Positions 1 to 39,114 of a DNA stretch of 39,251 nt are shown here, piece after piece (positions within the stretch are counted from its first letter, which is position 1; each line of letters begins with the position of its first letter). Below the pieces are notes generated by a model, which searched no databases, was not told the origin of the DNA, and saw only the letters and a program-made list of their open reading frames with translations. This stretch comes from a virus. The stretch is from IMG/VR virus record IMGVR_UViG_3300045988_063349, positions 1 to 39,251 of that record. One strand, 5' to 3'. The translations under genes were made by a program, and so were the position numbers.

Positions 1-119
1 TCCAAGCTGTCTACTGTAGACATTAAAAACAAAAAAACTTTTATAAATTTTGATTTACCTCTTGACTTTACGGCGTTATCGCCGTATAATAGAGACAACA
101 AAAGGGAAACACCCAAAGA
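1..119. repeat. Terminal direct repeat copy 1 (identical to 39133..39251); circular-contig overlap
   Basis: Read directly: bases 1..119 equal bases 39133..39251. Confidence 0.95.
62..90 (+). promoter_or_regulatory. Sigma-A type promoter P1 with an operator-like palindrome in the spacer
   Basis: TTGACT (62..67), 17-nt spacer, TATAAT (85..90). The spacer contains TACGGCG-TTAT-CGCCGTA (69..86), which overlaps the -10. Confidence 0.75.
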
Positions 120-136
120 AAACGGAGGAAAATAAA

Positions 137-427
137 ATGAAAATCGCAGGAATCGGAAACGTCCGCAAAGCGGACATCATGAAAGAGATGTTAAGCCCAG
201 AGGGTCGCGGCATGGTGCGCCGCGGCGAGATTACAAACGAGGAGCTTGCCGCAGAGTACAAGCGTTGGATTGTAAGTAAGGCGTCCAAGTTTGGACGTTA
301 TCCGGACACGTTTGACGCTTGCTGGAGCAACATCCCTGCGGGCGTGAGAGAGTCCGCCGCAGTGGCAGACCTCGCCGAGCTTGTCAACAACTTTTATTAC
401 TCCCGCCCTCACGGGTATGACGAGTAA
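137..427 (+). CDS. Hypothetical small protein (96 aa), first gene of the accessory island
   Basis: ATG at 137 lies 8 nt after GGAGG, in frame with ORF 50..427. No recognisable domain. Confidence 0.7.
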   Translation: MKIAGIGNVRKADIMKEMLSPEGRGMVRRGEITNEELAAEYKRWIVSKASKFGRYPDTFDACWSNIPAGVRESAAVADLAELVNNFYYSRPHGYDE

Positions 428-428
428 T

Positions 429-459
429 AAAAAAATCCCCTCGGCTTGGTGCCGAGGGG
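429..459 (-). terminator. Intrinsic terminator of the minus-strand ncRNA
   Basis: On the minus strand: CCCCTCGGC-ACCAA-GCCGAGGGG followed by A and TTTTTTT. On the plus strand the hairpin has no downstream T-tract. Confidence 0.75.
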
Positions 460-493
460 ATAGTGGGTGGTGGTAAAAATTACCCAAACTTAT

Positions 494-529
494 GTTTCAA
501 CCCGTGTGCGGTCGGATTGCTGACCGCAC
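494..529 (-). repeat. CRISPR-repeat-like element A: GTGCGGTCAGCAATCCGACCGCACACGGGTTGAAAC
   Basis: 8-bp stem, 8-nt loop, 12-nt tail ending GTTGAAAC. Part of unit 486..558. Confidence 0.6.
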
Positions 530-608
530 CAATCTAGTAGCATCCAACTAGATCGACTGTTGTTTTGGTTTTGCCGTTGTGGCTATTGCCAAAACTGTCT
601 AAATTTAT

Positions 609-644
609 ATTTCAATCCGTGTGCAGTCGGATCGCTGACTGCAC
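609..644 (-). repeat. CRISPR-repeat-like element B: GTGCAGTCAGCGATCCGACTGCACACGGATTGAAAT
   Basis: Same architecture as A, 115 bp away. The tail GGATTGAAAT matches type I-C repeat 3' ends (from memory). Part of unit 601..673. Confidence 0.6.
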
Positions 645-679
645 CAACCTGACAGCATCCAGCCAGGTTGACTATAACT

Positions 680-708
680 ATAATAATGCCTTGACAACGG
701 TTTGTCAA
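680..708 (-). promoter_or_regulatory. Promoter of the ncRNA
   Basis: Minus strand TTGACA (708..703), 17-nt spacer, TATTAT (685..680). The predicted start near 673 coincides with the unit B boundary. Confidence 0.7.
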
Positions 709-710
709 GG
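689..710. promoter_or_regulatory. Perfect 9-bp inverted repeat (operator candidate) covering the ncRNA -35 and lying just upstream of the HTH gene RBS
   Basis: CCTTGACAA-CGGT-TTGTCAAGG read directly. Confidence 0.6.
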
Positions 711-724
711 TGAAGGAGGCAAAA

Positions 725-1102
725 ATGAGGAAAATAATAAAGGGTCACCTGTGCAGCACTGAGACTGCACGGAATGTAGCGGAAAGTGAGACCTGTGCGA
801 TTTATCAAAACCGCGCAGGGTTTTACTTTGCGTTTTATCCAGCCGAACAGGACATTGCCCTGCTGACAGACGAGCAGGCGCAGGCAGAACTGCGCAATCT
901 GTCACACGCCGTGCCGAACGGAATCAAGACTTTGCGTAGAGCCGCAAAGTTGACGCAAAAGCAGCTGGCCGATGCTGTCGGTCTTGACATCCGGAATCTA
1001 CAGCGGTATGAGAGCGGTGAGTTTGACGTTGCAAATATGAGCTTGTCAATCGCTGTAAAGATTGCCGACGCGCTGGGCGTCGACGCAAAAAAACTTTTAT
1101 AA
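725..1102 (+). CDS. XRE-family helix-turn-helix protein (125 aa), Aca-like position
   Basis: ATG after GAAGGAGG. C-terminal motif LTQKQLADAVGLDIRNLQRYESGE is typical of HTH_XRE. The N-terminal 60 aa are unassigned. Confidence 0.75.
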   Translation: MRKIIKGHLCSTETARNVAESETCAIYQNRAGFYFAFYPAEQDIALLTDEQAQAELRNLSHAVPNGIKTLRRAAKLTQKQLADAVGLDIRNLQRYESGEFDVANMSLSIAVKIADALGVDAKKLL

Positions 1103-1117
1103 ATTCCGTTTTTCCTC

Positions 1118-1146
1118 TTGACTTTACGGCGTTTTCGCCGTATAAT
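1118..1146 (+). promoter_or_regulatory. Promoter P2, near-identical duplicate of P1
   Basis: TTGACT, 17-nt spacer, TATAAT with TACGGCG-TTTT-CGCCGTA. The surrounding block 1087..1170 is about 93% identical to 31..116. Confidence 0.75.
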
Positions 1147-1185
1147 AGAGACAACAAAGGGAAACACCCACAGGAGGAAAACAAA

Positions 1186-1491
1186 ATGAAAAAAGTAAGA
1201 TATGCAGATTTAAGTAATGTGACAAACCACAAGTTTGCCGTAGTAATCAGCTCGCTCAAAGATTTTGAGATCGAAGAGGTCGGAGAATACGAGCAGCACG
1301 CAAACGCAGCAATTTATGTGCACCTCGGCAGGATGGATGCGGAAGAACTCGACGAGTACTGCGAAGGCGTGCTTGAGTACATCGAGAAAAACAACGAAGG
1401 CGAACCGGTAGACGATGAAATTTTTGACTGCTGGGAATGGGTAGGCGAAAACGAATCGCGGACTCTTGTCTTTCCAGAATCGTGGGTGTGA
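1186..1491 (+). CDS. Small highly acidic hypothetical protein (101 aa)
   Basis: ATG after AGGAGG. Rich in D/E (EEVGEYE, DAEELDEY, EGEPVDDE). Confidence 0.7.
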   Translation: MKKVRYADLSNVTNHKFAVVISSLKDFEIEEVGEYEQHANAAIYVHLGRMDAEELDEYCEGVLEYIEKNNEGEPVDDEIFDCWEWVGENESRTLVFPESWV

Positions 1492-1505
1492 AGGAGGAAA
1501 CGAAA

Positions 1506-1976
1506 GTGATTTATCTGTACGACAGAAAAGAGCTTGATTTTAATGCAGCCGACAGCCTGACTATCATTCACAACGAGCAACGGTACTTCGCATGGCTTGC
1601 GAAAACTCTCAAGCCGGAACGCGCGAAATACCTTGAGCACATCGACGAGGGATATGACGACACGGACGAAGAGCGGTCGTATTTTCAGCTCGGCGAAGTA
1701 GAGCAAGCTTGGCTGGAGGATGTTTTCAAAGAAGCCGCAAACGGTGGGAGCAGCGTTGAGGTTTCGCAGTTTGACACAAAGTCTCGGCTGCCCGAAACTT
1801 ACGATTTTGGAATCGACTATCATTATGCTGTCGCTGCGGGCGACCTGCCCGCGGACTTCGAGAAGGAAAACCGCGAGCACTGGCCAGAATTTCATTTTTG
1901 GAAGGGCGGTCACGTGATTGATAAACCGGAAAACGAGGACGAACCCGGCAATCTTATAGAGGTGTTCACACTGTGA
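1506..1976 (+). CDS. Acidic hypothetical protein (156 aa)
   Basis: GTG start 8 nt after GAAGGAGG, in frame with ORF 1437..1976. Confidence 0.65.
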   Translation: MIYLYDRKELDFNAADSLTIIHNEQRYFAWLAKTLKPERAKYLEHIDEGYDDTDEERSYFQLGEVEQAWLEDVFKEAANGGSSVEVSQFDTKSRLPETYDFGIDYHYAVAAGDLPADFEKENREHWPEFHFWKGGHVIDKPENEDEPGNLIEVFTL

Positions 1977-1979
1977 AAA

Positions 1980-2006
1980 CAGCCGCCCAAACGGGCGGCT
2001 GTTTTT
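1980..2006. terminator. Bidirectional intrinsic terminator between convergent operons
   Basis: CAGCCGCCC-AAAC-GGGCGGCTG flanked by AAAA upstream and TTTTT downstream. Confidence 0.8.
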
Positions 2007-2295
2007 ATATCTTTGATAGTTTTAAAAAGATTTGATTATAGACGCGCGGGCTGACAACGGACAGCGTTTGCATCAGCTCATCCATCACTCTCCACGCGGA
2101 TGCTTGATCTACAGAGGCGACGAGGCGCAGAAAGTCGCTGTCTGTCGGCATGTCCGGCGGCGCCGCTTGGCTGTAGCCGCTCGAATTGTGCGCACGGACA
2201 GTGTACAGATTCGCCAGCTTTTGCACATTTGCATAAGTTGTCTGCGAGTGCTCAAGCTCTACGATCGCGCTCTCTACCTCTTGCATATCAAGCAT
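2005..2295 (-). CDS. Hypothetical protein (96 aa), last gene of the post-lysis cassette
   Basis: ORF track; tightly packed with the upstream gene. Confidence 0.6.
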   Translation of the reverse strand: MLDMQEVESAIVELEHSQTTYANVQKLANLYTVRAHNSSGYSQAAPPDMPTDSDFLRLVASVDQASAWRVMDELMQTLSVVSPRVYNQIFLKLSKI

Positions 2296-2298
2296 GAT

Positions 2299-2679
2299 CT
2301 ACATCCTCTCCAGCTGCTCCAGCGCCTTGCGCATTGCCGATCTGTCCGATGCGGACAAGGCATCGGTGTCCATCGCGTTGCGGATGCGGTCAATGATGTC
2401 GCTCTTTACGTCATCACGGCTATAGTGACCGGTCACCCAGTGTCGGGCATAAGAGTGCCCCTCGTCACGCATTCGACGCGTGTCCGCCGGATAGCTGTCG
2501 CGGTAGACCGGATAGCCGCGAGAGTCGCCGGTGTCCATTGTCTCAATCTCTCCGATGTCCTTGATAATGTCTACCATTTTGTAAACTGCCTCAAGGTCTG
2601 CCATGCTCATGTTGCCCTTGTCTGCGTACTCGTCAAGCGTCATACACACTAAATCACGCAGTTTTTCCATGTTTTTCAT
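2299..2679 (-). CDS. Hypothetical protein (126 aa)
   Basis: ORF track; no recognised domain. Confidence 0.6.
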   Translation of the reverse strand: MKNMEKLRDLVCMTLDEYADKGNMSMADLEAVYKMVDIIKDIGEIETMDTGDSRGYPVYRDSYPADTRRMRDEGHSYARHWVTGHYSRDDVKSDIIDRIRNAMDTDALSASDRSAMRKALEQLERM

Positions 2680-2689
2680 ATTTTACACC

Positions 2690-3082
2690 TCATTTCACGC
2701 GCTGCACGATAAAGTTTGCATTGTCGATAGTCGCAGCCGCCGACAGAGTGACAGCAAGCGTCACGCGGGACGGATATGCTGCAGGCCTGACATAGATCGT
2801 GTCAATCAAGTTAAATGCGAGCGCGTCAGTTGTCGCTGCGCTGGTCTGCGTCTGTGCGCTGCTTGACAGTGCAGTTCCGTTTGCGGTGACCTGCGCGGTG
2901 ACATTTCCGGCAGCTGCGCCGGTCGCGTTGATATTTGCAAAGATGTTGTAATATCCCGCTTTGAGCAGGGTCACTGTTCCGCTGCCGGTTGCCGTCGCGC
3001 TGTTGCTGTTGATCTGTGCGGCGAACGGGATGTTTGTGCCAGCCGTATAGGCGGTCGAGCTTGTAATTGTGCCTTTATACAT
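2690..3082 (-). CDS. Putative C1q/TNF-like (BclA C-terminal-like) jelly-roll protein (130 aa)
   Basis: Small-residue-rich beta pattern: IPF...GTVTLLKAGYYNIFANINA...VTANGTAL...IDNANFIVQRV resembles BclA_C/C1q heads (recalled, not searched). Confidence 0.4.
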   Translation of the reverse strand: MYKGTITSSTAYTAGTNIPFAAQINSNSATATGSGTVTLLKAGYYNIFANINATGAAAGNVTAQVTANGTALSSSAQTQTSAATTDALAFNLIDTIYVRPAAYPSRVTLAVTLSAAATIDNANFIVQRVK

Positions 3083-3146
3083 ATTTTTTACCTCTTAAAC
3101 AATAGGCAGAGCTTGCGCCCTGCCTATTTTCATGCCTTGCGCATCC

Positions 3147-3974
3147 TTATGCGAGTGTAGTTCCGCCGTAGTATCCGGTATACTGCTGACCGCAGCAGCA
3201 ATACGGATTCTGCGTGATATATGCCGGAATCGGAGATGGACGCAGAGCATTGATAATATAATTGTTCTGCGCCGCCTGAGATGCCGCGAGGTTGAGCGCA
3301 TTGATCTGCTGCGCCTGCTCTGCGATTTTCTCGTTTTTCTGCTCGATGCTCTGTGCGGTAAGCGCGTCAAGAATCGCACGCGTGTTATCATTTTGGTTCT
3401 GTACGATAGCCTGCGTGTTCTGCGTCGCGTTGGTATTGATAGAGCACGTGTTGGTAGCCATATTGTAATTTGCGTTATCAACTGCGCGCTGGATGTTGTT
3501 CGCGTTTTGCAGTGCATCGTATCGGTTCTGGCAGCAGCAATCCGAAATCTGCCGAGAAACGCTGTTAATATTCTGGTTCAGGGCGTTTGTGCTCTGGGTG
3601 TTTGCCAGCGTGTTGTCTGCAAATCCCTGTGAAATAGTCTGCTGAATAGCGTTCTGACCCTGCATATTCTGCACAGCGGTAGAGGAAAAACCTTCATAAA
3701 TGCCATTTCTGATGTTGGAAACAGAATTCTTCAAGTCGTTGAAATTCATGTCCATGCACAAATCCTGACGGGTCAGCGCGCCCTGTGCGCCCGCGCCGTT
3801 GAATCCGTTCATGCCATTATTTCCCCATCCATTGCCGCCCCAGCCCATAAAAACGAACAAAAAGAGGATAATAATCCACCATGCGCCGCCGTCCATGCCG
3901 AAAGCACCGTTGTTATTGTTACCCGTGACCGCTGCCAGATCGGCAGGAGTCATCTCAGAAGTGGTTAAACTCAT
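3147..3974 (-). CDS. Membrane-anchored Asn/Gln-rich protein with two CCC motifs (275 aa)
   Basis: ATG 3974 after GGAAGG. TM segment WWIIILFLFVFMGW, then a Gly/Asn tract, a long N/Q-rich region, DCCCQNRY and C-terminal NPYCCCGQQY. Confidence 0.65.
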   Translation of the reverse strand: MSLTTSEMTPADLAAVTGNNNNGAFGMDGGAWWIIILFLFVFMGWGGNGWGNNGMNGFNGAGAQGALTRQDLCMDMNFNDLKNSVSNIRNGIYEGFSSTAVQNMQGQNAIQQTISQGFADNTLANTQSTNALNQNINSVSRQISDCCCQNRYDALQNANNIQRAVDNANYNMATNTCSINTNATQNTQAIVQNQNDNTRAILDALTAQSIEQKNEKIAEQAQQINALNLAASQAAQNNYIINALRPSPIPAYITQNPYCCCGQQYTGYYGGTTLA

Positions 3975-4028
3975 TGCATAACCTTCCTTTCTTTTTATAC
4001 AAAATGCGTGCACTGCATGTTTGTTTGC

Positions 4029-4220
4029 TTATTTAACATTAAACTGACCAAGAAGCTGGCTGAACTGTTGTGCCATGCTTTGCAGCTGGTTGAGCTGCGA
4101 CTGATTCATCTGACCGGATTGCAGGAGTTTCTGCACTTCCTGCTGCGGGTTGCCAGAGAACGAATTTTTAAACTGTGCAAATTGCTGAATCATCTGCATC
4201 GGGTTGTTAAACATTGTCAT
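4029..4220 (-). CDS. Small Gln-rich protein (63 aa)
   Basis: ATGA overlap with the upstream gene; about 27% Gln (17 of 63). Confidence 0.55.
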   Translation of the reverse strand: MTMFNNPMQMIQQFAQFKNSFSGNPQQEVQKLLQSGQMNQSQLNQLQSMAQQFSQLLGQFNVK

Positions 4221-4651
4221 CCTTCTTTCTTGTCAATCAGCATACTAATGCGCTTTTCAAGTTCTTCTTTTGTGACATATTCGCTCAAGTCTGGCATCGG
4301 TGCCGTTGCCTGCTGCTGCGCAGGATTTTGCACCGGCGGCGCAGAATCAAAGGTGTATGTCAGCGTCTGCATCATCGGCACGCCGTTGAGATTGACCGAC
4401 TTTAGATATATGCGCTGTTGCTCACTATCCCACAATGCGACAGTGCACCCAGCAGCAACCATGTACGCCTTTGCGCCTGCCTCTCCCTGCACCCAGATTC
4501 TTTCATCCGGCGTCTGTGTCTGCGCCTGCTGAAAAGGCTGATTTTGCTGCACACTGCCCTGTTGTCGCAATTGTGCAAGTTGGTCAGGCATCGCTTGATT
4601 ATATCCGTAGTACTGCCCTTGATAGCCCTGATACGGGTTAAAAGTCATCAT
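4217..4651 (-). CDS. Protein with Gln/Tyr-rich N-terminus and a globular C-terminal domain (144 aa)
   Basis: ATG 4651 overlaps the upstream stop (ATGA), preceded by GGGAG. Confidence 0.6.
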   Translation of the reverse strand: MMTFNPYQGYQGQYYGYNQAMPDQLAQLRQQGSVQQNQPFQQAQTQTPDERIWVQGEAGAKAYMVAAGCTVALWDSEQQRIYLKSVNLNGVPMMQTLTYTFDSAPPVQNPAQQQATAPMPDLSEYVTKEELEKRISMLIDKKEG

Positions 4652-5010
4652 TTTGCATACTCCCAATAGTAAATCGGTTTATTCCCGCCGCTGTCCCACG
4701 TGTCGTATATGCAGCCGTCTTTTACAGTTACCACGTGACCGGACGCAGCGACAACATAAACACCGTTTCTGTGCATTTTCGCAAAATCGTCAATTGTGTT
4801 TTGATTCGCAAGACGCCGCGTGAACCCTCTGCGCTGTAGTAGCTCGCCCCAAACCGCGTTAGCTGACGGCATGTCGCACATTTCCATGCCGATAGCACAC
4901 AGGTCTAAATATGCTGTACTCCAATCTTCGTCGAGTGCTGCGCTGATCGCCCGCACTGTGCAATCGCCGACGCACTGTTTTTTCGGGTTAGGATTGTAAA
5001 ATTTGTACAT
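4648..5010 (-). CDS. Small papain-fold Cys-His-Asp enzyme (transglutaminase / NlpC-P60 / C39-like), 120 aa
   Basis: Ordered motifs GDCTVRAIS ... ASGHVVTV ... YDTWD. Fold assignment inferred from motif order only. Confidence 0.45.
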   Translation of the reverse strand: MYKFYNPNPKKQCVGDCTVRAISAALDEDWSTAYLDLCAIGMEMCDMPSANAVWGELLQRRGFTRRLANQNTIDDFAKMHRNGVYVVAASGHVVTVKDGCIYDTWDSGGNKPIYYWEYAK

Positions 5011-5055
5011 TTTCGAACCATCTTTTGTCTATTTATTGATTTAAGTATAGCAAAA

Positions 5056-5079
5056 AGCAGGGACTAAAAAATCCCTGCT
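5056..5079. terminator. Hairpin terminator after the lysis/sigma-like operon
   Basis: AGCAGGGA-N8-TCCCTGCT with T-rich flanks on both strands. Confidence 0.6.
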
Positions 5080-5100
5080 TTCTTTCGAAAAACTGTCAGT

Positions 5101-5367
5101 TTAGTGTCTATCCATCCAATCCTCTTCCGCAGACGCTCTGCGCGGTGGTAGAATTTCACTATATTTCTGGCAGTTGTCGTATTTTTGCTTTAAACGTGCA
5201 ATGTGTCTATTTACTGTAGACACCGACATACCAAATTCCATTGCTTGCTTTGTGATACTCCATCCAGCGACGCGCGTTTTGATAATTTTCCGCTCGTCGT
5301 CTGTCAGGCAGCCCAGTTTGATAAACTCGTCTAAAAACGGCTTGCACCACGGAATTTGTTTTGACAT
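5101..5367 (-). CDS. Sigma-70 region-4-like HTH protein (88 aa)
   Basis: LTDDERKIIKTRVAGWSITKQAMEFGMSVSTVNRHIARLKQKY resembles sigma region 4 / LuxR-type HTH. Starts 2 nt after the endolysin stop. Confidence 0.55.
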   Translation of the reverse strand: MSKQIPWCKPFLDEFIKLGCLTDDERKIIKTRVAGWSITKQAMEFGMSVSTVNRHIARLKQKYDNCQKYSEILPPRRASAEEDWMDRH

Positions 5368-5368
5368 G

Positions 5369-6214
5369 TCACGCCTCCGATTTTGACATATTGTGCAGGA
5401 TAACAGCCGCCTGCTCGCGCGTCAGTGCCTTCTGCCAGCCAAAATTTCCGTTGCTGCCTGCAAAAATGCCGGCACTTTTTGCCCAGTCCGTCGCGCTCTT
5501 TGCCCAGCCCGACGGGTTGTCACCCGTGCCGGTGATGTCTGTGAGACTTGCCAGCTTTGCGGCAACCCTGCTGTCAATAAGCTTCTCGACCTCGGATTTT
5601 GTCATATCTACCTCATCCTTTCCGCTTGCGCTGATTTTTGATTTTGTCACAATGTAATAATAGTCAATCGCTGATCTGATTCCCGCGCGCGTCACGCGCA
5701 CAAGTCCGTCCGACTGCACCAATTTGCAATATTTGCGCCGGTTTGCCTGTGCCGTCCACTTGTCGCTGTAACTACAGCTGTCGATAATATATCCGTAGCT
5801 GTCGTCAACCGCAGCGAGACACATAAAGTGCCCCGCGCTGGACAGCAATTTGTTATATGTGCCGCCGACTGCACCGGCGGTGTGAATGATACACATAGCG
5901 CCGGATTTGACAGTTGCAAACGCTGCAGAGTCATCTGTAGTGTATTTGTACGTAAACCCGCCGTATTTGCTCTGCATCGCTTTAAGCAATGTACTGATAG
6001 TAGTGCCGCCGTCGTACCGCGCGCCGCAATTCACGGCGATCCGCGCAACTGCTGGGATAGTCGTTTTCCACCCCAGCAGATTGTTTCCGAGATTTCGGAC
6101 GCTGGAAGGGCCGCAGCCGCCACTCTTAATCGTCGCGCCCTTTGGCTTTCCGCTTTTTGTCCGATACGCCACATTGCTATATTGCAGCTGACTGGCAATG
6201 TCGTATTTTCTCAT
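5369..6214 (-). CDS. Endolysin: C39-like cysteine peptidase domain plus C-terminal SLH-like wall-binding domain (281 aa)
   Basis: Start ATG 6214 shares one base with the holin stop (TGATG). Motifs GGCGPSS ... AGHFMCL ... IIDS. The C-terminus GWAKSATDWAKSAGIFAGSNGNFGWQKALTREQAAVIL is SLH-like. Confidence 0.7.
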   Translation of the reverse strand: MRKYDIASQLQYSNVAYRTKSGKPKGATIKSGGCGPSSVRNLGNNLLGWKTTIPAVARIAVNCGARYDGGTTISTLLKAMQSKYGGFTYKYTTDDSAAFATVKSGAMCIIHTAGAVGGTYNKLLSSAGHFMCLAAVDDSYGYIIDSCSYSDKWTAQANRRKYCKLVQSDGLVRVTRAGIRSAIDYYYIVTKSKISASGKDEVDMTKSEVEKLIDSRVAAKLASLTDITGTGDNPSGWAKSATDWAKSAGIFAGSNGNFGWQKALTREQAAVILHNMSKSEA

Positions 6215-6405
6215 CAATCCACCTCCGGCAGACCGGTCACGATGCTGGTCAGCAGGGATGCCAGCGCGGACAGTGCAGCGGTAGACAGCACCACGCACCA
6301 GCTGACATCTTGCAACATTCCCGCCGCAGGAATCAGCGCAAGCGCCGTCTGCGCAGCGGTCTTTACCATGCGGATTCCTGCCGCTTTCCAAAACTTTTTG
6401 CTCAT
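6214..6405 (-). CDS. Holin (63 aa, two TM helices)
   Basis: Size, two hydrophobic helices, position immediately upstream of the endolysin. Confidence 0.7.
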   Translation of the reverse strand: MSKKFWKAAGIRMVKTAAQTALALIPAAGMLQDVSWCVVLSTAALSALASLLTSIVTGLPEVD

Positions 6406-6416
6406 AAAGCCCTCCT

Positions 6417-6641
6417 TTAGTGCAAAATTTGGTTGACAATTGCACCGGCGACAGCGGCGCCGATTGTTGCCAGAATTGCAATAATCATATTAAGCTTGTT
6501 TTTAATCACCGCAAAAGATGTGTCACCATGAGCCAATCGCGCGTCGTGACTATCAAGCCTTTCCTCGTGCTCGTCAAGCCGCGCTTTGTGGTTTTCAAGC
6601 GTCTCTTTGACGTGGTTAACCTCACATTCCAAATCGTGCAT
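6417..6641 (-). CDS. xhlA: XhlA-like lysis-associated membrane protein (74 aa)
   Basis: N-terminal coiled coil (HKARLDEHEERLDSHDARL) plus a C-terminal TM helix, upstream of the holin. Confidence 0.6.
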   Translation of the reverse strand: MHDLECEVNHVKETLENHKARLDEHEERLDSHDARLAHGDTSFAVIKNKLNMIIAILATIGAAVAGAIVNQILH

Positions 6642-6710: not shown

Positions 6711-8738
6711 TTAAAAACCAAGTCCTATCTTGATTATTGACTCGGAATCCGCACCTGGAATGTTAAAAAAATTTCTTTGTGTATTTGCAAAATCTCTAAA
6801 TATGTTTCCAATGAACGAAATATTTGTCACCGGCTTTACTGCATCGTCCTTGAGCACGGCTAAGGCATAACGATACTTGCCAGCGCTTGTAACGATCATA
6901 CAGTTATTGATTGAGACCCTGCTAATTCCATCTGATTTAGCATTTATCAATACTCCGTTTTCATTGTCATAAAGAGATGTATTGTTAACAAATACATCTA
7001 AAATTGTATGATTTTGACCGTTGTTTAGTAGTCTGACGCCGTTTGTAGAGTTGCAAAAATCACATTTATCAATAACTATATACTGTCCGCATGTCACGCG
7101 CAATGCATCGACAGTAAATCCTTTTGATGACCCACCTGCTTTGCAGTTTGTAAAATAAACATAATTAGGCAGTATAGTATTACCCTCTTCAGTCGTCCCT
7201 GTGTTATTGTAATCTTTCCCGACAGAAAAGCCTATCCCTTCCGATGGCGGAAAAAGCGAAACACGCACATTATCAAAATAATTGTACCCGCTCGGACAAG
7301 ATATATCTATGCCGTATGCAAAATGCGTTATCACCACGTGCTGGACGCAAGTGTCCGTTGTCCGGCAATCCATGTTGTGTGGCGTGTTATCTCTAAATGC
7401 AATTGCTCTTGATGTAGGGTTGTCGTTGCCTTTTAGCGACAGATCCTCTATTTTTAAATTTGACCCGCCGAAAAATTGAATAAACGTGCCGGAATACGAT
7501 GCAACAAATAACGTCCCGTACCATTCTGTTCCGTCTCCCTTTATTGTGAGCCCTTTTTTTTGATTGATCGTTATATTGCTTTTAAAAAGGTAACTCCCCT
7601 TTGGAAAATAAAGAACCGTGCACGGTTTTGCATCGTCAATCGCTTTTTGCACAATTTCGGCACAATCTACAACACCAGTATTATCAAGTTTTCCGTCGGA
7701 TATAGCGTTCCAAACGTTTCGCTTCAACAAAAAAATATCCTGTTTAATAACTTCAATGTCTTGACTACTTCCGCAGCTTTGCAAATCAACAGTCACCGCC
7801 GCTGATCCGTCATAAGTTGCAGATGTTGCGCCCGTAAAGGTGAGCGGAAATGTATTTGCGAAAGTTGCTTGATTAAGCTTTTTACTAAAATCGGTTTCCG
7901 TTCCGGTATAGCCCGCTTCTTGCGCAAATTGATATGCGGATTTGCCGTCTGCACCCGCTGGGATTCCAAGCGTATATTTTCGCGCTTGTGCTGTGCTGTC
8001 AGCGGTTTCTGTGACGGTCGGCGCACTGCCAGCTGCAAGACTAGTTGCACCCGTGATTTCCACAGTGCCAGCTGTGCCAGAGTTCCATTTTGCAATGTCA
8101 CTTTCGGAGATGGAATCAAGAGCGGATTTATTGCTGTGTGTATGCCGTGCAGATGTGTTTTTGTCAATGTCGCTTTTTGCACTTTCCGGCACTGCACCAA
8201 CTTCTGCCGCTGTGTAGGTCGGCTTTGTTTCTGCCTTTGCCCAGTCCGGCACTGTCGGGTCTTTCTCCTGATGCGCATCAACAACGCTTTGTGCGATTTC
8301 GCGCGCCTTTTGCTCTGTAATGCCGCTCAATTTAATATCCTCAGCAGCCTTCAAAACCTTATCTACCCAGCTTTTAGCGGCATCAGGCGGTGTTTCCGGT
8401 GCTGTAAGTGCACTTTTAATGATTGTACTAAAAATCTTGCTTTTCGCAAGGTTTCCGTTAACCATCCAGCGCAGTTCAAGCTGACCAGTGCCCGCTGTTG
8501 CCGTGTCTCCGTCAGAAATCAGCCAACTAACACGGTTGTTTTCGTCCTGCTCGATATTTACCGGATAGGTTGTCCCGTCCGGCGTCCTGTGTACAGCTTC
8601 GGCAAAACCATCACCATACATTTTTGCATATCCGGCACACAGAAATGTAATCTCTGTCACTCCATTTTCGCCCTGCCTACCCAGCTGCAAAGAGCCGGAA
8701 AACGCAGGTGGGATATTATATTTTCGCATTACTTCCAC
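6711..8738 (-). CDS. Tail fiber/tail spike: BppU_N-like N-terminus plus pectate-lyase-type beta-helix
   Basis: N-terminus QGENGVTEITF...PDGTTYPV...GTGQLELRW. Central motif VDCAEIVQKAIDDAKPCTVLYFPKGSYLF...LTIKGDG. An alternative ATG start at 8729 overlaps the upstream stop. Confidence 0.75.
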   Translation of the reverse strand: MEVMRKYNIPPAFSGSLQLGRQGENGVTEITFLCAGYAKMYGDGFAEAVHRTPDGTTYPVNIEQDENNRVSWLISDGDTATAGTGQLELRWMVNGNLAKSKIFSTIIKSALTAPETPPDAAKSWVDKVLKAAEDIKLSGITEQKAREIAQSVVDAHQEKDPTVPDWAKAETKPTYTAAEVGAVPESAKSDIDKNTSARHTHSNKSALDSISESDIAKWNSGTAGTVEITGATSLAAGSAPTVTETADSTAQARKYTLGIPAGADGKSAYQFAQEAGYTGTETDFSKKLNQATFANTFPLTFTGATSATYDGSAAVTVDLQSCGSSQDIEVIKQDIFLLKRNVWNAISDGKLDNTGVVDCAEIVQKAIDDAKPCTVLYFPKGSYLFKSNITINQKKGLTIKGDGTEWYGTLFVASYSGTFIQFFGGSNLKIEDLSLKGNDNPTSRAIAFRDNTPHNMDCRTTDTCVQHVVITHFAYGIDISCPSGYNYFDNVRVSLFPPSEGIGFSVGKDYNNTGTTEEGNTILPNYVYFTNCKAGGSSKGFTVDALRVTCGQYIVIDKCDFCNSTNGVRLLNNGQNHTILDVFVNNTSLYDNENGVLINAKSDGISRVSINNCMIVTSAGKYRYALAVLKDDAVKPVTNISFIGNIFRDFANTQRNFFNIPGADSESIIKIGLGF

Positions 8739-37036: not shown

Positions 37037-37621
37037 ATGACAAGACAAGAGGCAACACAAAGCGCCGCGATGATGCTCGCACAGGCGCGAAATGACGCGG
37101 GGCTGTCGCAAAGGTTTGTTGCACAGGCGATCGGCGTCGGCGAGAGGACGGTAAAAAATTGGGAGGCTGGCAGCAGCGCGCCGAACGTCGTGCAAATGGT
37201 CAGCTGGTTCCGCGCGTGCGGCATCAATCCGCTCGGATATGTGCTGGAATGGCTTGACCCAGCGAACTTTGACGGGCTGACGGCAACAGACAGCATAGAG
37301 GATGTAAAAAGCGCGTTAATGGCATATATTAAGGATATAGCCACGGAAAAAGAGATAAGACAGCTGGCATTTTGCATATTTGGCAATCACGGAAGTTCGT
37401 GGCGGTCACAGCTGGACATGCTGACAGCGCACGATCATACAACCCTGCGCAGCCGCGTGACCGTGGCGCGGGCAGTGCTGGAAAATTACGAAATGGAAGA
37501 TGCGCAAGGGATGCTGGTCAATGCGGACGACATCCCGCCAGACCTCTCACACCTGCGGGACGCAGTGGAAAAGGGCAAGGATGCCGTGCAGGAGGGAAAG
37601 AAAGGATATGTCGGAATATGA
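37037..37621 (+). CDS. Second XRE-family HTH protein (194 aa), translationally coupled to the integrase
   Basis: ATG after AAGAGG. HTH motif LSQRFVAQAIGVGERTVKNWEAG. The stop overlaps the integrase ATG (ATGA). Confidence 0.7.
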   Translation: MTRQEATQSAAMMLAQARNDAGLSQRFVAQAIGVGERTVKNWEAGSSAPNVVQMVSWFRACGINPLGYVLEWLDPANFDGLTATDSIEDVKSALMAYIKDIATEKEIRQLAFCIFGNHGSSWRSQLDMLTAHDHTTLRSRVTVARAVLENYEMEDAQGMLVNADDIPPDLSHLRDAVEKGKDAVQEGKKGYVGI

Positions 37622-39114
37622 TAGCTATATATGCGAGACAATCAGTCGAGAAAGCGGAAAGTATATCAATAGAGCAACAAATAGAGATGTGCCAACGCTG
37701 TGCAGACAGCGCAGCTGTAGAGGTGTATTCTGATGCCGGATTTTCCGGCAAAAATACCGCCCGCCCTGACTTCCAACGGATGTTGCAAGATGTAGAAAAC
37801 GGCTTGATAAATAAAGTCGTTTGCTACAGATTGGACAGAATAAGCCGAAATTTGTTGGACTTTGCAAACGTCTGGGAACTGCTGCAAAAACGCAAAGTTG
37901 AGTTTGTCAGCGTGTCCGAGCAGTTTGACACGACGACGCCGATTGGCAAGGCGATGATATATATCGCAATGGTATTTGCGCAAATGGAGCGTGAGACAAT
38001 CAGCCAGCGGATCACAGATAACTATTATACCCGTACAGCACATGGCGCATGGGGAGGCGGTCAGCCGCCGTTTGGCTTTAGTCTATCGCGCAGATTGATA
38101 AACGGCAAGATGCAGGCAGCATTGGAACCGATACCGCACGACATAGACATTGCAAAATGGATGTTTGAGGAGTACGCGACTGGAATCCGCTCGCTCGGCT
38201 GGATTGCAAGCGGCGTGTACGATAAACACCCGACGCGCGACACGCGCTGGAATAATGTCTCTGTGCGCAGGATACTCAAAAACCCGATCTACGCTGCCGC
38301 CGATGCTGATTTATACGCGTTTTTCACGGCGCGCGGGATAAATATAGCCTCATCTTTGACAGCTTTTGACGGCACGCAGACGGCCGTGCAAGTCGGCAGC
38401 CGGTCAAACGATACACGCGTGCGCAGACCGGTCGAAGAGCAGCAGTTGTGCATTTTCCCCGCCGAGCCGGTTGTGTCGTCCGCGACGTGGATTGCTGTGC
38501 AAAAAAATTTGTCGGAAAACAAACAGATAAAAAACAGCGGGAAAGGTAAATACTCCTGGCTGTCCGGCAAATTAAAGTGCGCATCCTGCGGCTACGGCTG
38601 CACGGCACATTATGATAAAAAAGTAAAGCGTGTATACCTGCAATGCACAGGCAGGTACAGGCAAAGCGTCAAGGCCGCGCGGTGCGAAATGCGACACACC
38701 GAGCGGATTGAGGACATCGAGGCGGCGGTGCTGACTCAACTAAAAGAGTACATGAGCGACGCAGAGCCGGCGCAGTCCGGCGTTGACGCACGGACGGAAC
38801 AGCGCAGAAACGAGTTAAAGCTGCAGCTGATAGATGCTCAACAAAAGCAGTCAAACGTTGCCGCCGCGATCGCCGACGGCGGCGCGGAGGTAATGCGGCT
38901 CATGCTGCCGGAAATCAAGCGGCTGGACGAGCAAGTCTTAGACATCACAAACCAGCTGTCGCAACTGTCTGAGCGCACAGTGCCCGCGTGGAGCAAAGAT
39001 TGCTACTTTGACTTAGACGAGCTGACGCGCGACCAGCTGCACGATCTCGCAGCGCTGACTATAAATAATGTATATATATCACCGACCGCCCCGCCGCGCG
39101 TGGAATGGAAGTAG
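37618..39114 (+). CDS. int: Large serine recombinase (integrase), 498 aa
   Basis: MIAIYARQSVEK catalytic Ser motif, resolvase N-domain (VCYRLDRISRN), recombinase domain, Cys-rich zinc ribbon (CASCGYGC ... C), C-terminal coiled coil. Confidence 0.9.
   Translation: MIAIYARQSVEKAESISIEQQIEMCQRCADSAAVEVYSDAGFSGKNTARPDFQRMLQDVENGLINKVVCYRLDRISRNLLDFANVWELLQKRKVEFVSVSEQFDTTTPIGKAMIYIAMVFAQMERETISQRITDNYYTRTAHGAWGGGQPPFGFSLSRRLINGKMQAALEPIPHDIDIAKWMFEEYATGIRSLGWIASGVYDKHPTRDTRWNNVSVRRILKNPIYAAADADLYAFFTARGINIASSLTAFDGTQTAVQVGSRSNDTRVRRPVEEQQLCIFPAEPVVSSATWIAVQKNLSENKQIKNSGKGKYSWLSGKLKCASCGYGCTAHYDKKVKRVYLQCTGRYRQSVKAARCEMRHTERIEDIEAAVLTQLKEYMSDAEPAQSGVDARTEQRRNELKLQLIDAQQKQSNVAAAIADGGAEVMRLMLPEIKRLDEQVLDITNQLSQLSERTVPAWSKDCYFDLDELTRDQLHDLAALTINNVYISPTAPPRVEWK

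Follow-up and report, generated by a model that had tools for sequence, protein, structure and literature searches.

Late phage cargo such as Shiga toxin is made without export signals and is freed by lysis, and a unit flanked by a terminator and a promoter of its own has the classic layout of a moron. Spore-coat proteins, which are assembled in the mother cell, also lack signal peptides, and spore-coat sets consist of such signal-less proteins rich in Cys, Tyr, Gln, and Arg. Here, we describe a cassette of eight genes that resembles each of these systems in part. The cassette lies on the minus strand at positions 2005 to 5367 of a 39,251-nucleotide stretch of viral DNA, IMG/VR record IMGVR_UViG_3300045988_063349 (positions 1 to 39,251; hereafter, the window), and its genes are called H, C, Y, q, T, B, UR, and u in their order on that strand. 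We conclude that the cassette is an undescribed kind of phage module. Our best reading, held with low confidence, is that tailed phages of gut Bacillota carry it as a late accessory operon complete in itself.

Like morons and Shiga toxin-type late cargo, the cassette has autonomous promoter- and terminator-like signals, lies at the edge of the late region by the attachment site, and encodes products that lack export signals and would be freed by lysis. Unlike them, it holds eight genes in a fixed order with a regulator of its own and no toxin-like domain, and it is also found in apparently virulent phages and within head-gene clusters. Like the Tgl-GerQ system of Bacillus, the cassette places a small papain-superfamily enzyme beside Gln-rich proteins, and its products lack signal peptides. 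No transglutaminase or Spore_GerQ match was found in the cassette, however, its enzyme is dispensable or replaced by another protein that we call Z, and the hosts and phages that carry it are not tied to sporulation. The genes of the cassette and the signals around them are as follows.

5101 to 5367, minus strand: H, 88 aa, region-4/GerE-like helix-turn-helix (HTH) protein
5052 to 5079, minus strand: terminator-like hairpin AGCAGGGA-N7-TCCCTGCT plus T-run, read directly, 3' of H
5044 to 5052, minus strand: extended -10-like box TGCTATACT without a recognizable -35, located 34 nt before the start codon of C
4648 to 5010, minus strand: C, 120 aa, minimal papain-like Cys-His-Asp protein, facultative member
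4217 to 4651, minus strand: Y, 144 aa, with a Q/Y/P-rich N terminus, core member
4029 to 4220, minus strand: q, 63 aa, Gln/Met/Asn-rich, core member
3147 to 3974, minus strand: T, 275 aa, membrane-anchored Cys/Asn/Gln-rich helical protein, hallmark of the cassette
2690 to 3082, minus strand: B, 130 aa, BclA_C-like
2299 to 2679, minus strand: UR, 126 aa, Arg/Gly/Tyr/Ser-rich, core member
2005 to 2295, minus strand: u, 96 aa, with conserved 'SDFL' and 'MDELM' motifs, facultative last gene
1972 to 2009: bidirectional terminator-like hairpin with a 17-bp stem, closing the cassette

All coordinates and motifs, the terminator, and the TGCTATACT box given by a first-pass annotation of the window were reproduced from the sequence, and independent gene calls on other contigs with an identical T protein agree except that q was called as 61 aa. 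The genes are as tightly packed as that annotation had reported. H starts 1 nt past the stop of the endolysin gene to which it was said to be coupled, C overlaps Y by 4 nt and Y overlaps q by 4 nt, and the gaps between B and UR and between UR and u are 10 nt and 3 nt, respectively.

The cassette recurs widely. Searches of phage records by tblastn found C and T together in several uncultured gut phages, and with local profile hidden Markov models (HMMs) built for each protein by iteration, we collected 12 loci from phages, 80 from species-representative genomes, and 80 from IMG/VR. A conserved gene order was found in approximately 170 independent loci, and thus the cassette is more than a chance association; the gene set that the first-pass annotation treated as a unit does travel together in the same order. 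The commonest order is that of the window, H C Y q T B UR u, and variants include H Y q T B UR C, C H Y q T B UR, H Y q T B/J UR Z, and H Y q T J F, where J, F, and Z are alternative members described below. To count the components, we used 102 loci in which T is flanked by 3.5 kb or more on both sides. Either B or J was present in all 102, Y in 97, q (two sequence variants pooled) in 97, UR in 95, H at the cassette head in 71, and u in 33. C was found in 65 loci and Z in 27, no locus carried both, and 10 carried neither.

The cassette is also invisible to curated annotation. None of the eight proteins reached a curated threshold in Pfam, NCBIfam, or PADLOC, which bears out the earlier statement that the set is not a recognized system, and the PADLOC scan gave chance-level matches only (the HTH protein against CARF/CasR models and T against ZorA, E 0.031). 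All of the proteins but u fall into PHROG families; H matches a family of sigma factors, and no function is assigned to the families of the other six. Moreover, a blastn search of the region against 50,697 phage records returned a single short match, and thus the module is conserved at the level of protein rather than DNA. A literature search combining BclA, prophage, exosporium, and phage-encoded did not find the cassette described, and neither did the phage annotations and family libraries that we searched. We note that in Dulem virus 33 an inserted endonuclease gene that runs on the opposite strand (L001, 7065 to 7616) separates q from T, and that a related endonuclease family, HNH-like by eye, lies within or beside the cassette in eight loci in total. 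The cassette tolerates selfish insertions, and its gene order is kept.

T is the hallmark of the cassette and was correctly anticipated to be a membrane-anchored, N/Q-rich protein. From N to C terminus, it has an acidic tail of approximately 28 aa, one transmembrane (TM) helix (WWIIILFLFVF), a Gly/Trp/Asn linker, and two long helices, followed by an invariant CCC, further conserved Cys residues, a Pro-rich RPxPxPAY segment, and a Cys-rich tail. The window copy has 8 Cys, 26% Asn plus Gln, and 1% Lys, and the family medians are 10 Cys and 20% Asn plus Gln. T matches phrog_16490 (E 3.6e-37) and belongs to a large family, in which none of 5619 homologous clusters at 90% identity has a Pfam domain; the family counts 3373 representatives at 50% identity and has no Pfam or NCBIfam match. 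When a T profile was run against 1.84 billion representatives, the best 150 matches were all 160 to 340 aa, and a search of those 150 for fusions found no large added domain. T is present on at least 514 IMG/VR viral contigs and in 179 confirmed stretches in contigs of species-representative genomes. The AlphaFold2 (AF2) model of T is of low confidence (pLDDT 58, pTM 0.25), with helices at residues 32 to 42, 79 to 120, and 129 to 243. T was duplicated or split into two adjacent open reading frames in four loci (L038, L043, L052, and L087), and the homologues P0049 and P0096 each hold two CCC-bearing repeat units. These repeats suggest an internally repeated helical unit.

The N-terminal tail of T (residues 1 to 28; window 3891 to 3974) is of two motif types that are equally common, one of the form (Y/M)SLxDIAAxTG(G/N) and one built around TMPVAP. 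The variant (Y/M)SLxDIAAxTGG fits the double-glycine leader pattern LSxxELxxIxGG at most key positions, and TMPVAP does not. The idea that the tail is a double-glycine leader is weakened by the existence of the second, unrelated motif and by the failure of either motif to track with C or Z. A positive-inside analysis of T was uninformative on its topology.

C is the member of the cassette for which a biochemical activity had been proposed. The first-pass annotation noted ordered Cys, His, and Asp motifs (GDCTVRA, SGHVV, and DTWD) in a papain-like fold, and both points hold: C17, H92, and D103 are invariant in 50 homologues, and in a confident AF2 model (pLDDT 97.1, pTM 0.90) the Cys is the first residue of a helix (17 to 26), the His starts one strand (92 to 97), and the Asp ends the adjacent strand (100 to 103). 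C thereby resembles clan CA peptidases of the C39, Josephin, and Tae4 types, in which the Cys stands at a helix N terminus and the His and Asp lie on adjacent strands. C differs from them in being only 120 aa long and stand-alone, without an ABC transporter or signal peptide, and in its database matches. No match to Pfam or NCBIfam was found at E <= 0.1, and a profile of 50 C sequences found nothing among PDB sequences. A Foldseek search against the PDB, judged on the best 50 of 414 matches, gave weak matches only (best E 0.024, TMq <= 0.51). Those that are recognizably papain-like are peptidases, amidases, and deubiquitinases, namely YopQ, Josephin-2, the amidase Tae4, the C39 domains of PCAT1 and ComA, staphopain, UfSP2, a herpesvirus deubiquitinase, and IdeC; the remaining matches have unrelated folds and E values of approximately 1 or more. 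For the C39 domains of PCAT1 and ComA, the matches had E 0.39 to 1.7 and TMq 0.42 to 0.46, and C39-type bacteriocin processing finds no counterpart in the form of a transporter gene in or beside the cassette.

Relatives of C are phage proteins. C matches phrog_3754 (E 3e-29), and a search of BFVD, a collection of predicted viral structures, gave strong matches (TMq 0.65 to 0.88) to small uncharacterized proteins encoded by phages of Pseudomonas, Enterococcus, Sphingomonas, Cellulophaga, and others. The BFVD matches also include proteins labeled 'Peptidase C39 domain' (E 4.4e-3) and 'Josephin domain.' By sequence, members of the C family are found without the cassette as well, as lone genes in early or accessory regions of Geobacillus phage GBK2 and Tsamsa-like phages of Bacillus. 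We conclude that the cassette recruited C from a broad family of minimal papain-like proteins found in phages.

The place of C in the cassette may instead be taken by Z, an HExxH metallopeptidase-like protein of 89 to 128 aa with weak matches to DUF6782, M78/IrrE, and SprT. Z closes the cassettes in which it occurs (for example, L005 9210 to 9527, L009 9009 to 9278, and L010 8979 to 9365), and hhalign found no relation between C and Z. As C and Z are mutually exclusive, the activity that the cassette needs would be peptide-bond hydrolysis rather than Gln-Lys transfer. The pattern argues for hydrolysis, with the qualification that acyl transfer is still compatible with the fold of C alone, although no observation favors it.

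The exchange of C for Z bears directly on the model of the first-pass annotation, in which C is a transglutaminase that cross-links Gln-rich and BclA-like proteins into a spore or envelope layer of the lysogen. We consider that model highly improbable. C is indeed papain-like with Cys, His, and Asp in order, its partners are Gln-rich, B is BclA_C-like, the regulator is GerE-like, and the composition of the set recalls that of spore coats. The Cys-His-Asp geometry does not discriminate a transglutaminase, however, because it is common to all clan CA hydrolases, and C matched neither Transglut_core nor any other Pfam family. Thus, the structural comparison upheld the papain-like geometry and not the enzyme class, as no transglutaminase was found among the best 50 of the 414 Foldseek matches. 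Moreover, cross-linking by C is hard to reconcile with loci in which an HExxH protein fills the slot (27 of 102) or in which the slot is empty (10 more), with C-family proteins that occur in Bacillus, Geobacillus, and Gram-negative phages without Q-rich genes, and with a T protein that offers only 1% Lys. Finally, neither Spore_GerQ nor any other spore-protein Pfam family was matched by the cassette proteins, and the sole spore-related NCBIfam match, to YpeB, was at chance level (E 0.013, 14.5 bits versus a cut-off of 303.55).

The hosts and lifestyles of the phages that carry the cassette also argue against a spore layer. Host labels of prophage contigs include Ruminococcus, Subdoligranulum, Acutalibacter, Lachnospiraceae, Erysipelotrichaceae, 'Mollicutes' and Anaeroplasmatales-type Bacilli, and the Negativicutes Phascolarctobacterium and Selenomonadaceae. 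Labels taken from metagenome-assembled genomes (MAGs) may err, and several of the loci lie inside contigs of 80 to 440 kb. Most hosts are monoderm Clostridia or Bacilli, and several of the labeled taxa are not known to sporulate; the prophages on contigs labeled Phascolarctobacterium, Selenomonadaceae, Subdoligranulum, and Mollicutes-type lineages count against a spore layer in lysogens. In the cultured Butyrivibrio phage Ceridwen, whose host is not known to sporulate, the lysin gene is followed by C, Y, q, T, a B-type protein, UR, and u. Dulem virus 36 has a circular genome of 53.8 kb with nearly all genes on one strand and no annotated integrase. Ceridwen has been observed only in the lytic cycle, and its cassette genes are annotated as hypothetical (PMC7372960). 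A role that depends on sporulation or lysogeny is unlikely for a cassette that occurs in apparently virulent phages and in hosts that do not sporulate. The cargo-like position noted by the first-pass annotation stands, in that the cassette is insulated by terminator-like hairpins and lies at the end of the prophage, by the attachment site.

The position of the cassette was resolved by comparing copies of the phage. A contig of 37.6 kb with an identical T protein (L174) runs from the cassette through a 109-aa gene to the serine recombinase gene, and we read it as an excised or circularly permuted, free form of the phage. In copy L175, which is integrated, the genes present at window positions 1 to 1976 come after the cassette, and host genes (radical SAM, Mem_trans, MatE, and MerR) come after those. 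From the two gene orders, it follows that the cassette is the last unit on the late strand and adjoins the attachment site. The prophage boundary lies just past the cassette terminator (1972 to 2009), and beyond it in the window are four plus-strand genes (50 to 1976), one of which encodes an XRE HTH protein.

The signals at the head of the cassette indicate how it may be expressed. The first-pass annotation placed a terminator and then a promoter-like box after H, and both are there, at 5079 to 5052 and 5052 to 5044, respectively. The hairpin is terminator-like and putatively ends the late/lysis transcript after H, and a GC-rich hairpin plus T-run follows H in at least 15 divergent loci. The TGCTATACT box is a putative cassette promoter by consensus match only; in many other loci, a -10-like box stands 3 to 10 nt past the terminator T-run, and approximately half of these have TGn. 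H itself resembles GerE, stand-alone region-4 proteins, and LuxR-type HTH regulators in that it and its homologues are 60 to 88 aa long and hold little beyond a region-4-type HTH. It is unlike GerE-type regulators in that the window copy falls below family cut-offs, with matches to Sigma70_r4_2 (E 1.3e-4, 22 versus 25.7 bits, residues 18 to 62) and GerE (E 2.5e-3, 17.9 versus 23.5 bits). The homologue in L003 exceeds the Sigma70_r4 cut-off (26.7 versus 24.1 bits), and H matches phrog_1740, 'RNA polymerase sigma factor' (E 4.9e-7). Region 4 alone was matched, with no match to region 2 in Pfam or NCBIfam, and thus H is not a sigma factor. H is probably a regulator of the cassette.

Perhaps the cassette is a lysogenic-conversion moron, expressed from its own promoter in the lysogen and serving membrane-level superinfection exclusion, defense, or alteration of the host. 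Its place at the extreme prophage end beside the attachment site would fit, as would the many loci in which it lies between lysis genes and integrase or repressor genes, the membrane protein that it includes, and the flanking terminator and extended -10 box, which needs no -35. The signals that flank the cassette are terminator-like and -10-like, and its insertion site varies. We consider a moron unlikely, however. The PADLOC scan gave no significant match. The cassette keeps the orientation of the late genes in every case, occurs in apparently virulent phages that have no integrase, and in some phages lies within head-gene clusters, and six to eight genes rich in low-complexity proteins are unlike known exclusion genes.

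Although its orientation is constant, the position of the cassette varies. Usually, the cassette comes after the XhlA, holin, and endolysin genes and before oppositely oriented integrase or repressor genes. In Dulem virus 39, an integrase precedes the cassette. In Dulem virus 35 (L002) and in L009, the cassette lies between a gene for an SPP1-gp7-like minor head protein and the scaffold/capsid genes. The cassette of Dulem virus 36 has no H and begins 10 nt past the receptor-binding gene, at a distance of 17 kb from the holin and lysin genes.

The usual position, directly after XhlA-like, holin, and endolysin genes, raises the possibility of a lysis accessory in which T is a spanin-like inner membrane component and the cassette controls lysis timing or the last step of envelope disruption. 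The coupling of H to the endolysin gene and the predicted layout of T, with an N-terminal TM helix, long helices, conserved Cys residues, and a Pro-rich end, may point the same way. The likeness of T to spanins is limited to the predicted TM plus long-helix layout, however, and no lipobox or lipoprotein gene that could supply a partner is found in the cassette, while most hosts are monoderm. Comparison of T with PDB chains by sequence and profile found nothing significant; weak matches to the influenza HA2 stem, which might be taken to favor a spanin-like protein, are at chance level (E 0.25 to 2). Moreover, the cassette of Dulem virus 36 is remote from the holin and lysin genes, and those of L002 and L009 lie between head genes. 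We therefore regard a dedicated lysis role as improbable.

The two phages with the cassette between minor head and scaffold/capsid genes, and Dulem virus 36 with the cassette after its receptor-binding gene, raise the possibility that the products are virion-associated proteins, whether decoration, fiber-tip, or ejected, made with the structural genes. B is relevant here, as BclA_C/C1q-type heads occur at phage fiber tips. We doubt that the products are virion proteins and consider it rather improbable. The position is variable and mostly after lysis genes, B lacks a stalk or anchoring region, T is a membrane protein, and the unit is regulated on its own.

B had been described as C1q/BclA-like, and that assignment survives in part. 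B matches Pfam BclA_C (PF18573) with an E value of 8.9e-7 over profile positions 14 to 127 of 128, at 29.3 bits versus a cut-off of 38, and it lacks a stalk. The best PDB matches of a B profile are the C-terminal domains of BclA and F-BclA (9H38), at E 0.08 to 1.3. The structure 9H38 is that of the F-BclA C-terminal domain (PMC12357932). Thus, like BclA and F-BclA of the exosporium and endospore-appendage fibers, B matches BclA-type C-terminal domains and only those. Unlike them, B is 130 aa long, nearly all of which is inside the C-terminal-domain match, has no collagen-like GXX repeats and no N-terminal exosporium-targeting motif, and scores below the family cut-off. A homologue search found 12 close relatives only, three of which, at approximately 95% identity, carry a precomputed PF18573 match. 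B is likely a distant BclA_C homologue, and by homology its fold would be a C1q/TNF-type jelly roll, putatively trimeric.

B is replaced by the unrelated J in 12 of the 102 loci, also a point of difference from BclA, and outside the window the slot is held either by a main B type or by J. J is a Cys-rich protein of 127 to 146 aa found in L003, L004 (for example, 7798 to 8181), L010, and 13 other loci, with conserved CC pairs and an N-terminal C-x3-C-x2-C that is invariant in most members. The spacing of that motif is the one seen in radical-SAM-type cluster motifs. No match to J was found in Pfam or the PDB, and hhalign detected no relation between B and J or between UR and u.

Y has the Q/Y-rich N terminus noted earlier, as part of a Q/Y/P-rich low-complexity head, followed by a conserved region of approximately 55 aa with a beta-like pattern by eye and a helix-like C-terminal 'EYVTREEF..L' segment; it matches phrog_21718 (E 4.6e-21), and no significant match was found among PDB sequences. 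The reported Gln content of q is correct (17 of 63 residues, 27%), and q matches phrog_22984 (E 3.7e-18) and belongs to a family of 60 to 80 residues with two sequence variants, the second of which is found in 40 further loci. UR matches phrog_28802 (E 1.6e-8) and has helix-like ends and a low-complexity middle of very variable length. UR and longer 'YRYANGRFAPKG' ('YRYANGRF') proteins form one family (hhalign probability 100%), and 36 members searched against Pfam at E <= 1 hit no consistent family. In four loci (L003 8386 to 9384, L004 8398 to 9177, L064, and L086), the UR slot is filled by F, a protein of 259 to 332 aa from a different family, with an Asn/Ser/Gly/Met-rich head and a helical body. 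We considered F as a ferritin-like protein and rejected the idea, as neither Pfam nor the PDB supported it and the only match, to calbindin, was spurious. Homologues of u were found in Dulem virus 33, Ceridwen, and MT835551. No recognizable enzyme other than the peptidase was found in the cassette by Pfam, NCBIfam, or PADLOC.

How might these proteins act together? We tentatively favor a late, membrane-anchored multi-protein assembly that is matured by limited proteolysis and acts at or after lysis, a reading that we consider possible rather than probable. H, made together with the late and lysis genes, would activate the -35-less cassette promoter, and the products would then be made in the very last stage of infection. 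T would insert in the cytoplasmic membrane and recruit partners that lack signal peptides, namely, Y, q, UR, and either J or B, the latter putatively a trimeric jelly-roll protein. A TM segment is found in T alone, and the other proteins have no N-terminal hydrophobic segment by eye, for which reason we place the partners of T in the cytoplasm up to lysis. The result would be a low-complexity, Cys-rich assembly of several proteins at the membrane, one component of which would be matured through limited proteolysis by a small peptidase, C in approximately two-thirds of cassettes and Z in approximately one-quarter. The likeliest substrate would be either Y, which is translationally coupled to C, or the conserved N-terminal tail of T. 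The assembly might then act in progeny release, dispersal, or persistence, and not in spore formation.

Several observations weigh against such an assembly. H is missing from 31 of the 102 loci, and 10 lack a peptidase. The extended -10 box could drive expression in lysogens independently of H. Relatives of C stand alone in other phages, and thus C could be an unrelated, co-located accessory gene. The two motifs of the T tail do not follow the distribution of C and Z and so point to no defined cleavage site. Finally, the model of T is poor, and its topology is ambiguous, with few charges flanking the TM helix and a net charge of approximately -2 on the N-terminal tail.

The late assembly might take a more specific form. 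We speculate that the cassette is a virus-encoded counterpart of the spore coat, in which signal-less proteins and a BclA-like trimer self-assemble into a membrane-nucleated, protease-matured, cross-linkable shell, an extension that we rate as doubtful. The parallel in composition is real, as the cassette combines a GerE-like regulator, a protease, a BclA-like head, and Cys/Tyr/Gln/Arg-rich proteins without signal peptides, but it is one of analogy and not homology. Such a matrix or shell could enclose membrane remnants and progeny virions, and oxidation of Cys residues might harden it. Perhaps the matrix would protect or aggregate the phages of strict anaerobes during faecal-oral transit.

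The cassette is of interest because it is widespread, unusual in composition, and open to experiment. It is found in hundreds of phages of gut Firmicutes and spans Clostridia, Erysipelotrichaceae, RF39-type Bacilli, and Negativicutes as well as different phage lifestyles. This range suggests that it serves gut phages in some general late function, one that annotation currently misses. Cultivable carriers exist, namely, Ceridwen on B. fibrisolvens DSM 3071 and prophages of the isolates Acutalibacter sp. 1XD8-36 and Pseudoflavonifractor sp. 524-17. Solving the function of the cassette would annotate thousands of dark-matter genes and could bring to light a new step in how phages are released, persist, or manipulate their hosts.

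The window as a whole is a siphovirus-type prophage of approximately 37 kb with its lytic genes on the minus strand. One prophage end carries a serine recombinase gene (37372 to 39114) and genes for XRE-type repressors and a Bro-N/ANT antirepressor. Next to the cassette are the following genes.

5369 to 6211, minus strand: C39-like/SLH endolysin, with weak Pfam matches to Peptidase_C39_2 (E 0.031, N-terminal) and SLH (E 0.0096, C-terminal)
6214 to 6405: r1t-type holin, Pfam Phage_r1t_holin (E 6.7e-17)
6417 to 6641: XhlA-like gene (E 8.3e-5)
6711 to 8738, minus strand: tail-fiber-like protein, 675 aa, with a pectate-lyase/rhamnogalacturonase-like beta-helix domain (Pfam E 1.6e-8)

With a C39-like endolysin and C, the phage encodes two papain-type proteins. 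A relative of the endolysin in bajarodcaudo virus 5 is annotated as a 'C39-like family peptidase.' The SLH domain hints at a host whose wall polymer is of the S-layer type. The tail-fiber-like protein is, judging from its domain, a probable depolymerase-type receptor-binding protein. Its length varies from 576 to 672 aa between otherwise near-identical copies of the phage (L174 to L177).

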